Of a stretch of 64,000 bases of DNA, positions 15,279 through 36,475 are shown one piece after another. The notes below the pieces were generated by a model. The model did no database searches, was not told where the DNA came from, and worked only from the letters and a program-made list of their open reading frames with translations. The position numbers were made by a program, and so were the translations under genes. Source of the stretch: a plasmid. The number at the start of each line of letters is the position of its first letter. Positions within the stretch are counted from its first letter, which is position 1. The DNA lies in the NCBI RefSeq assembly GCF_058153355.1, contig NZ_JBLWLY010000002.1. One strand, written 5' to 3'.

Positions 15279-15560
15279 CTGCTGACGAGGGCTTATCCCT
15301 GTCCGCCGCTGACACCACGTATACCAGCCGCTGTGGGCCACCCGGAGCACGCGGCACATTGCCTTGATGCTGAACCCAGCCTGATGTTTTTCAATAAAGA
15401 CATACTTCATTTCAGGCGCTTCGTAAAGTATGTCGCGGCCTTTTGGAGGATAGCCAGTTCCTCTGCCTGCTCCGCCAGTTGCCGCTTCAGGCGGGCATTT
15501 TCAGCGGCCAGTTCACTTTCACGCTCAGACGAGGTCATCTGTTGCTGCAGTTTGCTGCGC
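15279..15560 (-). pseudogene. IS3 fragment (orfA 3' end plus orfB 5' start), bounded by the IS21 and IS66 insertions
   Basis: Minus-strand translation ..[50 protein letters not shown] followed by [25 protein letters not shown].. Confidence 0.7.
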
Positions 15561-15679
15561 GTAAGCGTCTTATCAGGACCGTCTGGCAAATTCCCGATGC
15601 TTTGGACAAAGTATCCACCACTAAATTAATAGTGGGTGATAAAAATGTCAGATATACAAAAAAATGCCTCTCCGGGAAG

Positions 15680-17105
15680 TAATGCCAGTCAGTTAAGCAA
15701 CTGACTGGCTCTTTTTCGGGGCTGTGGGGTATTTCCAGGGCCTCTCCTTTACCACTCTCGGGAAGGCCCTTTCCCTTCTTGTCGGTAATTTCACAAGTTG
15801 TCCCATACTTGCAAGATCGCGCATCAGCTCCGGTATACGTCCCGGTGAAGCGCCCTGCAATGTCATCAGCATTCTCATCACCATTCCGCATGATTCTGAG
15901 AAACTCAGTTGATTCGGCCAGTAACCTTTCAGATGTTCCGCCATTTTAATCATCTGATATCTCACCAGATTATAAGCCAGTAAGACACCCCACAGCTCTT
16001 GCTCCACAAGCTCCGGCTTTTTACTTCTCAGCGTCAGCCTGCTCAGTTGCATCGTCTGTTTTATCTCCCTGTATCCCAGTTCGATTTCCCAGCGATGACT
16101 GTACAGATCCGCCATTTCTCCTCCGGGGAAGCGCATGGCGTCCGTCATCGACGTCAGCAGATGGCAGACTTTTCCTTTGCGCGTCACGGTCAGCAGGCGG
16201 GCTGTCACTTCATTTCCCAGTCCCGGCCACTTTTTTCGTGCCTGCGGGCTGGTTTTCAGCTTCACCAGATGATCGCCTTTACCCAGTTTTCTGATCTCTT
16301 CATATTGCGCTCCCTTTCTGAGAGGTATCATCCAGTGGCGGTGTTCTCCCGCCAGGCTCCAGGCATTTAACAGTCCCAGTGAGTAATAACCTTTATCCAT
16401 TAACGTCAGAGTGTTATCGCCGGTTTGTTCTATAAGTTGCTCAGCAAGCTCATTTTCGCTGTTCTTCATCGTGCCGAAGGCTGCAGCCGTCAGCAGATGG
16501 CTGGTCAGTTCCATCTGGCAGACCATTTTGACCTGCGGGTAGAGCGCCGGGTTCCCGGCATGTGTCTGGCGGGGGAAGGCTGCATCGTTCTCTGGTGTAT
16601 CCGGTGTGCGCCAGAACACACCATCGATGGCCAGCAGGGTCAGGCCGCACCAGTGCGGATGCGGCGTGGCGTTATGCCAGAGCTGCGCTGTTTTCGTGAA
16701 CACGCGGCGGACAGCCTCACTTCCCAGGCGCTGGCGGGCCTGAATAACGGCACTGGGGGCAACGAAGGGGCGATTGCCCGGCAGCATGATGTCCAGGCGA
16801 TTCACAATCTGGTGAAGAGGTTCTTTACGCTCAAGCGCCATGCCAACAATACACCAGACCATCATTTCGAGGGGAAGACGGCGCTTGCGTAGCGTTACAG
16901 TACCTGATTCGGCAAGGCAACGAGAGATGAGTTCGGGGTCGAGGTAATCCCCCAGAGAAGTCAGTGGGTTACGCAGAGAATCGTAACGGGATACCAGATC
17001 AAGAGCCTGTCCAATGTGCATAAAAAAATCCGGAAACAAGTGAGCGTTTCCGGATTCTTACACAGCCACTGGATCGGTCAACTGATCCTTAACTGATCGG
17101 CATTA
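15680..17105 (-). mobile_element. IS4, 1426 bp, flanked by a 12-bp direct duplication CTCTCCGGGAAG (15668..15679 and 17106..17117)
   Basis: Terminal inverted repeats TAATGCC(A/G)..CAGTTAAG at both ends; perfect 12-bp TSD; length equals canonical IS4. Confidence 0.9.
15693..17039 (-). CDS. IS4 transposase
   Basis: 448-aa ORF (from the first ATG) matching the IS4 transposase as I recall it. Confidence 0.9.
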
Positions 17106-17498
17106 CTCTCCGGGAAGGCCTAAAGGGTGCCTGAATTATCCTCCTGAATTCAAACAACGACTCATAGAAGCATCATTCCAGCCAGGTGTTTCAATTTCCA
17201 GACTGGCCCTGGACAATGGTATTAATGCCAATCTGTTGTTCAAATGGCGTCAGAAATGGCGGCAGGGGAAGATAAAATTGCCATCATCAGAATCAGGCAG
17301 AGAATCTCAGTTAATTCCTGTCACTATTGATGCCCAACTCCCAACTGCTCCGGCTAATGAGCCACTGACCGCAAGACCGTCAGTAACACCGGAAATACAC
17401 AGCATCTCCTGTGAGATTACGTTCAGAAACGGCACCCTTCGGTTGAACGGGGCAGTGAATGAAAATCTGCTGTCCTTGCTTATACAGGAGCTGAGACG

Positions 17499-17846
17499 GT
17501 GATATCTCTCCCTGCAGGTTCGCGTATCTGGCTGGTTGCAGGTATCACCGATATGCGAAATGGCTTTAACGGCCTGGCCTCAAAAGTTCAGAACGTCCTG
17601 AAGGATGACCCGTTCTCCGGACACCTGTTCATCTTCCGCGGACGCCGGGGTGACCAGATAAAAGTGCTGTGGGCTGACAGCGACGGACTGTGCCTCTTCA
17701 CCAGACGCCTGGAACGGGGCCGCTTCGTCTGGCCGGTCACCCGTGACGGCAAGGTGCACCTTACTCCGGCCCAGTTATCCATGCTTCTTGAGGGCATCGA
17801 CTGGAAACACCCGAAACGAACGGAACGCGCTGGCATCCGCATATAA
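17499..17846 (+). CDS. tnpB: IS66-family TnpB (orf2)
   Basis: 115 aa; near-identical to the TnpB of the intact copy at 22228..22575. Confidence 0.85.
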   Translation: MISLPAGSRIWLVAGITDMRNGFNGLASKVQNVLKDDPFSGHLFIFRGRRGDQIKVLWADSDGLCLFTRRLERGRFVWPVTRDGKVHLTPAQLSMLLEGIDWKHPKRTERAGIRI

Positions 17847-17865
17847 CCCGTTGTAAAGTGAGGAT

Positions 17866-34199: not shown

Positions 34200-34783
34200 A
34201 AACTGGATTGTGGGCCATAAATATTCCCAAAAAATAGCCCGCTCCGTTTATTACCGGAACGGGCGAGAGCATGACATTGTCTGTAATTATAATGAGACTG
34301 CTGATTCTACTTATTTTTAATTTCAAGAAAAGCGTTTTCTACAAGGAATTATGAGATTTAATGTTTTGTTTAGACAATATTATCATTCTGTTCAATAATG
34401 AAAGTCTTCATCAACAACAAGTAAAAACAACGTCCCTCTCATCGAACCGGACTTACAGATTTCCCGCATCCGGCTCTCTTGCAACACATCAGACCTTCAC
34501 GTTCGGGCGGTTATGGGGAAGGTCCAACAAGCTGTATGAGCCCTAACTGTTTGAATACCAGTAGATTACCAGAAACTTCTATCGATTGAAGACATTACCA
34601 ACTAGCGTTACTAAATGTTGACCAAGTTTTGTTCACTTGTCTGGTTTTGATAGTAGCATTCTGCAGAGTATTTTGATATGATAAATATGCATTAACAATG
34701 ATATTATTGTTAATTTCCTAGCATGAAAATTAAAAGATCAACTTTTTATCTCGAATATTTTTTACATTATCAGTTGGTTTCTT

Positions 34784-35500
34784 ATGAATGACAATTCATT
34801 GCTTAGAAATTCTTCATTATTCATCGCCTATATGGGATGTGTAGGGTGGGTCAGTGCTTATTCTTATGGCTGGGGAACCTCTTTTTACTATGGATTTCCA
34901 TGGTGGGTTGTTGGTGCAGGTTTGGATGATGTTGCCAGAAGTTTACTCTATGCTATCATAGTAATGGGTATACTCTTTACCGGTTGGGGGATTGGTATTT
35001 TATTTTTTCTTCTTATAAAGAAAAGAAGTAAAATACAAGACTTGAGTTTTTTTAGACTATTTTTTGCTATTACCCTACTGTTTTTCCCTGTAATATTCGA
35101 ACTTTTAATTCTCAAACAATATTTCATACTTCCATTATCACTTTCATGCATTATTAGTTCATTGGTTATTTCAATAATAATTCGTATATATGGACGGATC
35201 TTTTCTGTATCATGTTTTTCAGATATCCCTTTTGTTAGAGAACACCGCATTAAGTTAATTATGGCTGGTTTTTTGGTTTATTTTTGGCTTTTTTCCTTTC
35301 TTGTTGGCTGGTATAAACCTCAATTAAAAAAAGAATATCAGATGCTTTGTTATAATAATAGTTGGTATTATGTTCTTGCTCGTTATGATTCACGGCTCGT
35401 TTTGTCTAGTTCATTTAAAGATGACAGTAACAGATTCTTAATATTTAATACAGAACAGTCGGGATTTTATGAAATCAATGATGTTTATGTCAGAAAGTAA
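34784..35500 (+). CDS. Hypothetical polytopic membrane protein (238 aa) in an AT-rich island
   Basis: Several long hydrophobic segments; strongly AT-rich codon usage unlike the neighbouring IS DNA; no recognisable motif. Confidence 0.45.
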   Translation: MNDNSLLRNSSLFIAYMGCVGWVSAYSYGWGTSFYYGFPWWVVGAGLDDVARSLLYAIIVMGILFTGWGIGILFFLLIKKRSKIQDLSFFRLFFAITLLFFPVIFELLILKQYFILPLSLSCIISSLVISIIIRIYGRIFSVSCFSDIPFVREHRIKLIMAGFLVYFWLFSFLVGWYKPQLKKEYQMLCYNNSWYYVLARYDSRLVLSSSFKDDSNRFLIFNTEQSGFYEINDVYVRK

Positions 35501-35842
35501 TAATCCTCTCCCACAAAGTGAATTAAATGAATATATAATGCGTTCGAAGTATATGTATTGAGCTGTCATACTGAGAAACAAACCTTAGGGCAGCACAATT
35601 AAAGCCAGAAACAACTATGCAAGAAATTCACCGTCATACTGATGCTGCATCGTGGTGACACTGTCTGTCACTTTCATGTTGACTGAACAACTCTGCTGCG
35701 AAGAAGGTGTACCGCCGGCGGGATTTGATTGTCCGGCGTCTAGCTTTCACTTCCCTGATGGAACTGAAAGTTGTTATGACCGGTCAGCTTGCCCTGTCCG
35801 CAGGACATGAGGTGCTGTGACGGACAGCACCAGTAACGGAAA

Positions 35843-36259
35843 GTGACAATGAAAATGAATACTGCGCTGATAGTTGCACTAATGTGTATGTGGTATGCGG
35901 TACCCGCTGCTGCAAAAGAGACTTTACTGGCTATGCCACGTAATTCAACAGAACATTGCTATGCGGAGATTAATGTGCACGGACCATATGGGGTGTATTT
36001 CCGAGTGGTCCCGCATACCCCCGGGGGAAAGAGCTGGGTCGAATGTAACAGTGACTACTATTACTCTGATAAACCACCGGGAGTACAGATACTCGGAACC
36101 CGTGCAGGGTGTCGGGTATACGGAATCTGCGGGACCACCTCGACACTGCATGTGGCTGGAAGAGGGGTTGTGTGTATTAAAAATATATGCAGTCCACGTG
36201 GGATGATAATTCACAGGATACGGAAACGTCCTGTAGTGGCTGTAAGCGATGAGATGTGA
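35843..36259 (+). CDS. Hypothetical secreted cysteine-containing protein (138 aa); stop codon is supplied by the IS3 end, so possibly 3'-truncated
   Basis: N-terminal signal-peptide-like sequence MKMNTALIVALMCMWYAVPAAA; stop TGA at 36257..36259 coincides with the first bases of the IS3 end TGATCTTACCC. Confidence 0.4.
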   Translation: MTMKMNTALIVALMCMWYAVPAAAKETLLAMPRNSTEHCYAEINVHGPYGVYFRVVPHTPGGKSWVECNSDYYYSDKPPGVQILGTRAGCRVYGICGTTSTLHVAGRGVVCIKNICSPRGMIIHRIRKRPVVAVSDEM

Positions 36260-36475
36260 TCTTACCCAGCAATAGTGGACACGCGGCTAAGTGAGTAAAC
36301 TCTCAGTCAGAGGTGACTCACATGACAAAAACAGTATCAACCAGCAAAAAAACACGTAAACAGCATTCGCCTGAATTTCGCAGTGAAGCCCTGAAGCTTG
36401 CTGAACGCATCGGTGTTGCTGCCGCAGCCCGTGAACTCAGCCTGTATGAATCTCAGCTCTATGCGTGGCGCAGCA
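36257..36475 (+). pseudogene. IS3 left end with orfA 5' part, interrupted by IS66 copy 3
   Basis: TGATCTTACCCAGCAATAGTGGACACGCGG.. terminus; orfA MTKTVSTSKKTRKQHSPEFRSEALKLAERIGVAAAARELSLYESQLYAWRS then the IS66 end GTAAGCGG at 36476. Confidence 0.75.

Follow-up and report, generated by a model that had tools for sequence, protein, structure and literature searches.

Organization of the icsA–virA region

The stretch of a Shigella-type virulence plasmid analyzed here (contig NZ_JBLWLY010000002.1; 64,000 nucleotides, hereafter the window) carries a unique block at positions 24162–36256 that contains icsA (24743–28051, minus strand), RnaG (28070–28189), and virA (about 28580–29782, plus strand), as well as a second fragment of an intron, remnants of IS elements, and the sequence flanking an IS3 element. 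IS66-family copies lie to the left (E1, 15561–23768, plus strand) and to the right (B, 36476–40028, minus strand). The original prediction had described two inverted IS66 copies. Their inverted arrangement was found as predicted, but neither copy is a simple element: the left one is a nest of elements, and the right one is a chimera with an internal deletion.

E1 is a composite, ISCro1-like copy of 8.2 kb: besides its own IS66 sequence it includes an IS4 element and a group II intron, and another IS66 element lies inside the intron. Its left inverted repeat at 15561 adjoins the 3′ piece of an IS3 element, and its right inverted repeat ends at 23768. The IS4 element (15680–17105, minus strand, 1426 bp; transposase match at 15693–17039) is inserted in tnpA of E1, is flanked by a 12-bp duplication, CTCTCCGGGAAG, at 15668–15679 and 17106–17117, and shares 99.9% identity with IS4 of pSS_046. 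A left-end fragment of about 400 bp from a different IS66-family element (23769–24180, minus strand) adjoins the right end of E1, and E1 therefore has no target-site duplication on its right flank.

The IS66 element within the intron, E2 (20607–23075, minus strand, 2469 bp), is complete and intron-less, and it was used as the internal reference for the sequence of the X-type element discussed below. It shows the tnpA-tnpB-tnpC organization of the IS66 family, with a DDE-type TnpC, and its genes at 22572–23000 (tnpA), 22228–22575 (tnpB), and 20637–22208 (tnpC) gave NCBIfam matches to IS66 TnpA, IS66_TnpB, and transpos_IS66 (20637–22208, 479 bits). Its left end, GTAAGCGTCTTATCAGGACCGT, and its right end, GTAAGCGGCTCGCCAGAACCGT (reverse complement), agree with the GTAAGCG start and the length of about 2.5 kb of the family, and an 8-bp duplication, GTTTCACC, borders it on both sides. 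Nucleotide identity between the IS66-family element and copies annotated as ISCro1 was about 96–97%. The left exon of E1 (15561–15679 and 17106–19255) was 100% identical to E2 (0 differences in 2257 positions), and 7 of the 212 positions of the right exon (23557–23768) distinguished E1 from both E2 and B. An alternative in which the IS66 element is 4.3 kb long and the middle copy is internally deleted was rejected; the intact unit measures 2469 bp, and the additional 1824 bp of the longer form are the group II intron.

The intron of E1 (19256–23556, plus strand) is split by E2 into 19256–20606 and 23084–23556 and contains a truncated RT ORF. Rfam matches covered domains D1–D4 (19329–19445) and D5/D6 (23479–23556), and RF01999 and RF00029 scored above the gathering score in both E1 and B, identifying group II introns in the two copies. 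The intron lies 212 bp from the right end of IS66, in the sense orientation of tnpC. Across all 1824 positions, the E1 intron has no mismatch to the introns in B and in a further copy, C.

The right copy, B, is a patchwork. Its right exon (36476–36687) is identical to that of E2 (0/212 differences) and is followed by the intron (36688–38511), which has an intact RT/maturase ORF (36768–38000; TIGR04416, 394 bits), and by 532 bp adjoining the intron (38512–39043) that are identical to both E1 and E2. The next segment (39044–39605) belongs to another IS66 type, with 97% identity to 58554–59154, and the last one (39606–40028) belongs to a third type and carries the left end at 40022–40028. An internal deletion of approximately 764 bp created a TnpA::TnpC fusion ORF, and B lacks the ISCro1-type left end together with the left 1.7 kb.

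A split IS3H-like element at the two IS66 junctions

The two IS66-family copies abut pieces of an IS3H-like element. The 3′ piece (15279–15560, minus strand) corresponds to IS3 positions 212–493, that is, the end of orfA and the start of orfB, and is interrupted at 15278/15279 by an IS21 copy. The 5′ piece (36257–36475, plus strand) contains the left inverted repeat, TGATCTTACCC, which begins at 36257, and codons 1–51 of orfA. Directly read from the sequence, TGCTGCGC occupies 15553–15560 and is followed at 15561 by the left (tnpA-side) end of IS66, GTAAGCGTCTTATCAGG, while its reverse complement, GCGCAGCA, occupies 36468–36475 and is followed at 36476 by the right end of IS66, GTAAGCGGCTCGCCAG. 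The split 8-bp duplication with adjoining IS66 ends had thus been predicted correctly to the base. The termini at the two junctions are of different types, and the elements lie on opposite strands. In the window, the plus strand has one occurrence of this 8-mer and two of its reverse complement, and the probability of a chance 8-bp match at two IS66 ends is about 1.5e-5.

When the two IS3 pieces were merged with the 8 bp counted once, an intact OrfA of 99 amino acid residues (..LYAWRSKLQQQ..KRLK*) was restored, as had been claimed for an orfA interrupted by a single IS66 element with an 8-bp duplication; orfB begins downstream of it in the −1 frame. This gene order and the left inverted repeat, which starts with TGATCTTACC at 36257, place the element in the IS3 family; only IS3 positions 1–493 are left in the window. 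The 3′ piece shared 98.9% identity with IS3H copies of pINV plasmids, which are annotated as "IS3-like element IS3H family" and in which it is contiguous with the 5′ piece. The rejoined element and its unique flank aligned without gaps to an uninterrupted IS3 in S. dysenteriae ATCC 12021 (597/601 identical positions). Empty sites with the same unique flank were found in plasmids of S. dysenteriae, S. boydii, S. flexneri, S. sonnei, and EIEC, and the overlap between the two pieces was exactly 8 bp in every reference examined. The contiguity in pINV/EIEC plasmids, the 8-bp overlap, and the shared unique flank indicate that the two pieces are halves of one IS3H copy, in agreement with the original prediction. 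We regard the empty site as decisive evidence for a single interrupted IS3 copy.

Orientation of the block and its probable history

Alignment to three reference pINV plasmids (NZ_CP026826.1, pWR501, and pSS_046) revealed that, with mxi-spa as the point of reference, the icsA/virA block is reversed. Window positions 1–12706 (mxi-spa) and the IS3 3′ piece (15278–15560) were in plus orientation in all three plasmids, and positions 24162–36475 (icsA, RnaG, and virA) were in minus orientation. The parM-side block at 50866–54983 was again in plus orientation in pWR501, indicating that the inversion is bounded on both sides; the collinear left flank was thus observed in three reference plasmids and the right flank in pWR501. 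In silico un-inversion of the segment restored a normal insertion, namely, an IS66 element with direct 8-bp TGCTGCGC repeats whose 2469-bp core matched E2 at every position, and made the unique blocks collinear with all three references. The restored element, like E2, thus carries the 8-bp duplication characteristic of the IS66 family.

E1 and B share an inverted tract of 2360 bp at 100% identity, which extends from the final 532 bp of the left exon through the intron (1824 bp) to 4 bp of the right exon. Differences that tell the two copies apart are restricted to the right exon and to the part beyond i1725. The crossover interval is limited to the identical tract, and the flipped segment is therefore 13.1–20.3 kb long. 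The predicted inversion of about 21 kb carrying icsA, virA, and IS4 was borne out for the two genes, but its size (20.9 kb) has to be reduced, and IS4 lies outside every possible crossover interval and is therefore not part of the flipped segment.

It is very probable that the icsA/virA block was flipped by recombination between inverted IS66-family copies, after insertion of an ISCro1-like element into an IS3H remnant. In the proposed history, which assumes correct assembly through repeats of at least 2 kb, an ISCro1-like element, X, with a sequence identical to that of E2, inserted itself into the orfA gene of an IS3H remnant. This remnant is an old one and lies, on a pINV-type virulence plasmid, between the virA-icsA block and the entry region of mxi-spa. 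The insertion, which we regard as demonstrated, generated the duplication of the 8-bp target GCGCAGCA. Another IS66-family element, Y, containing the same group II intron, would have resided in the opposite orientation at the distal end of the icsA block. From the geometry, the synteny, and the polymorphism pattern, we infer that homologous recombination between X and Y then flipped 13.1–20.3 kb containing icsA, RnaG, virA, and the 5′ half of IS3. The present copies would be the recombinants, E1 joining the left part of X to the right part of Y and B joining the right part of X to the left part of Y. Each of them retains half of IS3 and a single copy of the duplication, the two copies now being reverse complements of each other.

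The duplication at IS3 is split in this way (GCGCAGCA and its reverse complement), but the second pair, expected at the outer flanks, is mismatched: GCACTAAC at 23769 and CAACTACA at 40029 do not form a duplication, as had been noted in the original prediction. Y may have been a mosaic beforehand or may have been remodeled later by other IS66-family elements, which would account for the loss of the second pair. The second copy has neither a reciprocal duplication pair nor an ISCro1-type left end, and at least one further event is therefore required. Two candidates for Y were rejected as the direct ancestor: the old remnant of IS66::intron that canonical pINV plasmids carry downstream of ushA (about 94% identity, different flank) and the virF-proximal copy of pWR501 (99% identity, unrelated context). 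No PLSDB record shares either of the second-copy junctions (23300–24500 and 38900–41300). A nested IS21-mediated inversion was also considered, but no target-site duplications were found in any pairing of the two inverted IS21 copies.

The same final topology, with inverted copies, an inverted segment, and a duplication split in reverse complement, is predicted for one replicative event in which a single IS66 element, located at the distal end of the icsA block, attacked IS3 as an intramolecular target. Inversion by intramolecular replicative transposition is established for elements such as IS26 and Tn3, and we know of no demonstration of replicative transposition in the IS66 family. Such an event requires two identical and complete copies, but E1 and B show 7 differences over the 212 positions of their right exons, and B is devoid of the ISCro1-type left end and the 1.7 kb next to it. 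Moreover, the donor's own duplication was not recovered, and the IS3-proximal ends combined reproduce E2 exactly, as is the case for simple insertion of an E2-type element. The polymorphism pattern thus disfavors one-step transposition, which we consider very unlikely. An assembly artifact or a mixed population, with the non-inverted arrangement in the true plasmid or in some of the plasmids present, is likewise considered quite unlikely. A wrong path through the 2360 bp of perfect inverted identity would mimic an inversion exactly, and neither junction was seen in other records. However, the identical tract does not reach the IS3/IS66 junctions, which are genuine on either path, and diagnostic differences flank the tract on both sides. 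In addition, many other repeats of at least 2 kb are resolved in the window, which implies a long-read or finished assembly and argues against an artifact.

IS66-family elements repeatedly enter orfA of IS3 in unrelated genomes, and two independent events, with IS3 pieces from different copies or with GCGCAGCA as an IS66 hotspot, would make an inversion unnecessary. However, other ISCro1-like insertions in IS3 use different sites: in E. coli VTB97448v the insertion is located elsewhere (target-site duplication CGACATAC at IS3 337–344), and in NZ_CP062874.1 it is located 16 bp upstream of the site in the window. Furthermore, the window holds one 5′ piece and one 3′ piece that join seamlessly and have the same unique flank as the empty sites, and the synteny is reversed. 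The empty-site alignment, the in silico un-inversion, and the differing IS66 sites in IS3 refute two independent events or a hotspot, the chance of which we regard as negligible. The 8 bp at the IS3/IS66 junctions is a true IS66 target-site duplication, as had been predicted.

Recombination between inverted X and Y thus remains the preferred reading. The non-inverted intermediate, with IS66 in IS3, was not found in PLSDB, RefSeq complete E. coli genomes, GTDB representative genomes, or JGI metagenome contigs, and we therefore infer this state. No genes are disrupted within the flipped block, and the inversion is expected to be a neutral structural variant. Because the inverted repeats are still present, it is reversible in principle.

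Relation to known rearrangements and significance

Neither IS3/IS66 junction was found in PLSDB with 521-bp and 571-bp junction queries. The right junction was also not found in RefSeq complete E. coli genomes or, as an exact 39-mer, in GTDB representative genomes and JGI metagenome contigs. The two junctions, absent from all the collections searched, can therefore serve as a lineage-specific structural marker.

Inversions mediated by IS elements are known from pINV (PMC5629016, PMC9455713), and the deletions, inversions, and integration reported there share with the present case the plasmid family, the repeated-IS substrate, and the class of outcome; a split or mismatched duplication likewise serves as the signature. 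The published experimental cases in pINV are mainly deletions of the T3SS island or virF and integration via other IS types, whereas here IS66::intron repeats flip icsA-virA. IS66 insertion generates an 8-bp duplication, and mismatched or split duplications are an accepted signature of IS66-IS66 recombination (PMC6778807). In the Agrobacterium plasmids described in that study, 8-bp duplications were also present and recombination was recognized from surviving flanks that came from two different original pairs, but direct repeats gave rise to a 270-kb deletion, whereas inverted repeats here gave rise to an inversion. The inversion is a well-documented, private, and ordinary IS-mediated event in a plasmid family known for rearrangements, and it reveals no new mechanism or element type.

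Introns resident in IS elements are known in E. coli and Shigella (ltrA on pINV, e.g., pWR501), and the intron in the window is the same one, with 99.2–99.5% identity to the pWR501 copy. Unlike the known examples, the three copies in the window are 100% identical but sit in mutually differing IS66-family hosts, one of them is interrupted by IS66, and the identity tract available to the crossover consists mainly of intron sequence. A tentative and rather doubtful proposal is that the group II intron, not the IS66 sequence, is the effective recombination substrate, retrohoming having generated the perfect repeats that led to the icsA-virA inversion, possibly as a reversible flip with coexisting orientations. 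If so, retrohoming would have carried three intron copies into IS66-family hosts that, apart from the intron, share only about 70% identity, creating long perfect repeats between elements otherwise unable to recombine.

The locus provides an unusually complete reconstruction, from sequence alone, of one step in virulence-plasmid evolution, with the ancestral empty site, the insertion, the inversion, and an internal reference copy, and it is an example of a group II intron contributing the greater part of the homology that IS copies share. Live recombination substrates lie on both sides of the icsA-virA block, with E1/B and B/C as inverted pairs and E1/C as a direct pair. By way of these repeats, genes for virulence and replication could be inverted or lost.

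Structure of the interrupted IS3 and its 8-bp duplication

On the plus strand, positions 15553–15560 read TGCTGCGC, followed by GTAAGCGTCTTATCAGG from 15561, and positions 36468–36475 read GCGCAGCA, followed by GTAAGCGGCTCGCCAG from 36476. Direct reading of both junctions showed that the original prediction, a split 8-bp duplication abutting two IS66 termini, was right to the base. The two termini are of opposite type: the one at 15561 is a left end, the one at 36476 a right end. The left inverted repeat of IS3, TGATCTTACCCAGC..., begins at 36257 and opens the 5′ piece (36257–36475, plus strand), and the 3′ piece (15279–15560, minus strand) is ended at 15278/15279 by an IS21 copy. 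When the halves were joined with one 8-bp copy, an uninterrupted 99-aa OrfA (..ESQLYAWRSKLQQQMTSS..KRLK*) was obtained, and orfB began in the −1 frame. The two pieces are contiguous, with an overlap of exactly 8 bp, in many pINV plasmids in PLSDB and RefSeq, including those of S. dysenteriae, S. boydii, S. flexneri (pWR501), S. sonnei (pSS_046), and several EIEC strains; they lie at 143244–143569 and 143562–143844 in NZ_CP027028.1 and at 28071–28353 and 28346–28671 in NZ_CP026826.1. The unique flank (window 36150–36256) precedes them in these plasmids as well, and the sequence rejoined in silico aligned without gaps to the plasmid of S. dysenteriae ATCC 12021 (597/601), in agreement with the predicted origin of both halves from one IS3 copy. 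The split-IS3/IS66 observation was confirmed, and the 8 bp is a real target-site duplication (TSD).

The site was also considered as an IS66 hotspot within IS3, which had been named as a possible refutation. This explanation was rejected, because in the records with an ISCro1-like element inside an IS3 the insertion is at another site. In the E. coli VTB97448v chromosome, such an insertion has the TSD CGACATAC at IS3 positions 337–344, and in NZ_CP062874.1 the site is shifted 16 bp upstream relative to that in the window. These independent insertions into IS3 orfA are in unrelated E. coli (5340–8060 of the stretch taken from the VTB97448v chromosome and 5190–5210 of a second stretch). IS66-family elements appear to target the IS3 orfA region repeatedly, though not at a specific site.

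Anatomy of the IS66-family copies and orientation of the icsA–virA block

The IS66 unit is an ISCro1-like, IS66-family element of 2469 bp. Its intact, intron-less copy, E2 (20607–23075, minus strand), carries tnpA, tnpB, and tnpC, GTAAGCG termini, and the 8-bp duplication GTTTCACC. The copy adjoining the IS3 3′ piece, E1 (15561–23768, plus strand), is a four-level nest: an IS66-family copy contains an IS4 and a group II intron, and the intron in turn contains E2, a complete IS66 of its own. The IS4 lies in tnpA (15680–17105) with a 12-bp duplication. The 1824-bp intron lies in the 3′-terminal part of tnpC, 212 bp inside the right end, and contains domains D1–D4 and D5/D6 (Rfam) and a reverse transcriptase (RT)/maturase ORF, which is truncated by the E2 insertion. 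The copy adjoining the IS3 5′ piece, B (36476–40028, minus strand), comprises, from its right end inward, a 212-bp right exon, an intact intron, a 532-bp tract matching E1 and E2 exactly, and then sequence of another IS66-family type, in which a deletion of about 764 bp fused tnpA to tnpC; its left end (40022–40028) is of a third type. A 493-aa ORF in B (38462–39943, minus strand) represents a TnpA::TnpC fusion in this internally deleted mosaic element. E1 and B are mutually inverted, as the predicted model requires, but as flanks both are composite, E1 being a nest and B a mosaic with a deletion. A third intron-bearing copy, C, is located at 57366–62122 (plus strand).

The window was aligned to three reference plasmids, each from a different species: NZ_CP026826.1, pWR501 (NC_002698.1), and pSS_046 (NC_007385.1). 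Positions 1–12706, spanning mxiE–spa40, were in plus orientation relative to all three, as was the IS3 3′ piece, whereas positions 24162–36475, containing icsA (24743–28051), the RnaG sRNA, an antisense regulator upstream of icsA (28070–28189, Rfam match), virA (about 28580–29782), and the IS3 5′ piece, were in minus orientation, as expected for the proposed inversion. Rfam also matched, in this block, an ALIL frameshift pseudoknot belonging to an IS3-family remnant (30241–30357) and domain D1–D4 of another group II intron, distinct from that in E1 (31481–31599). The parM-side block (window 50866–54983) was again in plus orientation relative to pWR501, indicating that the inversion is bounded on both sides.

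Probable crossover between IS66-family elements

No differences were found between the E1 left exon and E2 (0/2257), between the B right exon and E2 (0/212), or among the introns of E1, B, and C (0/1824). The E1 right exon differed from both E2 and B at 7 of 212 positions, and B beyond i1725 is of a different IS66 type. This pattern indicates that both IS3-proximal ends came from one E2-type element (X), inserted in IS3 orfA, and both distal ends from something else (Y), a second IS66-family element at the far end of the icsA block. E1 and B would then be reciprocal recombinants of X and Y, with the crossover inside a 2360-bp identical tract, 1824 bp of which is intron. A one-step intramolecular replicative event would yield the same topology; it requires two identical, complete copies, a pair that was not observed, and we regard it as very improbable. 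At the level of sequence, these polymorphisms separate insertion plus recombination from one-step transposition. Recombination between IS66 copies has been inferred previously from mismatched 8-bp flanks (PMC6778807).

The limits of the identical tract bound the exchanged segment at 13,125–20,320 bp. The predicted inversion of icsA–virA stands, but not its size of about 21 kb; nor does the IS4 belong to the inverted segment, since its position in the element (119) lies outside the crossover limits. When the segment was flipped in silico between the first intron bases of E1 (19256) and B (38511), an IS66 flanked by direct TGCTGCGC repeats was restored within a colinear IS3, and every unique block became collinear with all three references. 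The restored core, minus the IS4 and the intron, matched E2 at every one of its 2469 bp (100%). We infer a non-inverted intermediate with the IS66 in IS3 and with icsA–virA in canonical orientation. Neither IS3/IS66 junction was found in any searched record or metagenome contig, suggesting that the insertion and inversion are private to the source plasmid. Misassembly across the identical inverted tract could also produce this arrangement but is unlikely, as many long repeats were resolved in the window.

The outer flanks, GCACTAAC (23769) and CAACTACA (40029), form no second duplication pair, as originally noted. The right end of E1 adjoins 400 bp from the left end of a different IS66-family element (23769–24180), B lacks an ISCro1-type left end, and neither of these two junctions was found in PLSDB. 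As foreseen, further rearrangement is needed: diverged IS66-family elements must have recombined or undergone deletion at least once more.

Other repeats and implications for pINV

Three identical (100%) 1824-bp introns (19256–23556, split by E2; 36688–38511; and 60087–61910) reside in mutually different IS66-family hosts. Their adjoining right exons differ at 6–9 of 212 positions, and on the 5′ side of the intron the ISCro1-like sequence extends over 2257, 532, and about 102 bp. These sequences suggest recent retrohoming with exon co-conversion, or recombination.

The canonical ushA–phoN block, next to icsA, is absent from the window. Its place (about 40029–46900), between B and the parM side, is taken by an IS21-family fragment, an IS110-family transposase (40702–41721), and an IncFII repA/pemIK module. 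This module is most similar (about 96%) to ordinary E. coli IncFII plasmids, not to pINV. Two mutually inverted, 99.8% identical IS21 copies (13148–15278 and 46919–49049) showed no TSD in any pairing. The first adjoins IS3 position 493, replacing the rest of IS3, with a 441-bp IS256-family remnant on its other side (12707–13147), and the second is flanked by an 839-bp direct repeat (45883–46721 and 49050–49888; 98%).

Inversions caused by IS elements are well known from pINV (PMC5629016; PMC9455713). Our results support IS66-mediated inversion, refined to composite copies, a mostly intronic crossover tract, and a smaller segment with the IS4 outside. The inversion disrupts no gene, and the orientation of icsA, RnaG, and virA is expected not to matter. 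It calls for no new mechanism and adds a further case of a familiar process for which this plasmid is famous. The IncFII repA/pemIK region lies between B and C, which form inverted repeats (36476–38656 and 59941–62122; 2183 bp, 99.7%), whereas E1 and C repeat in direct orientation; both pairs are potential substrates for more inversion, or for deletion of icsA–virA and the replicon.
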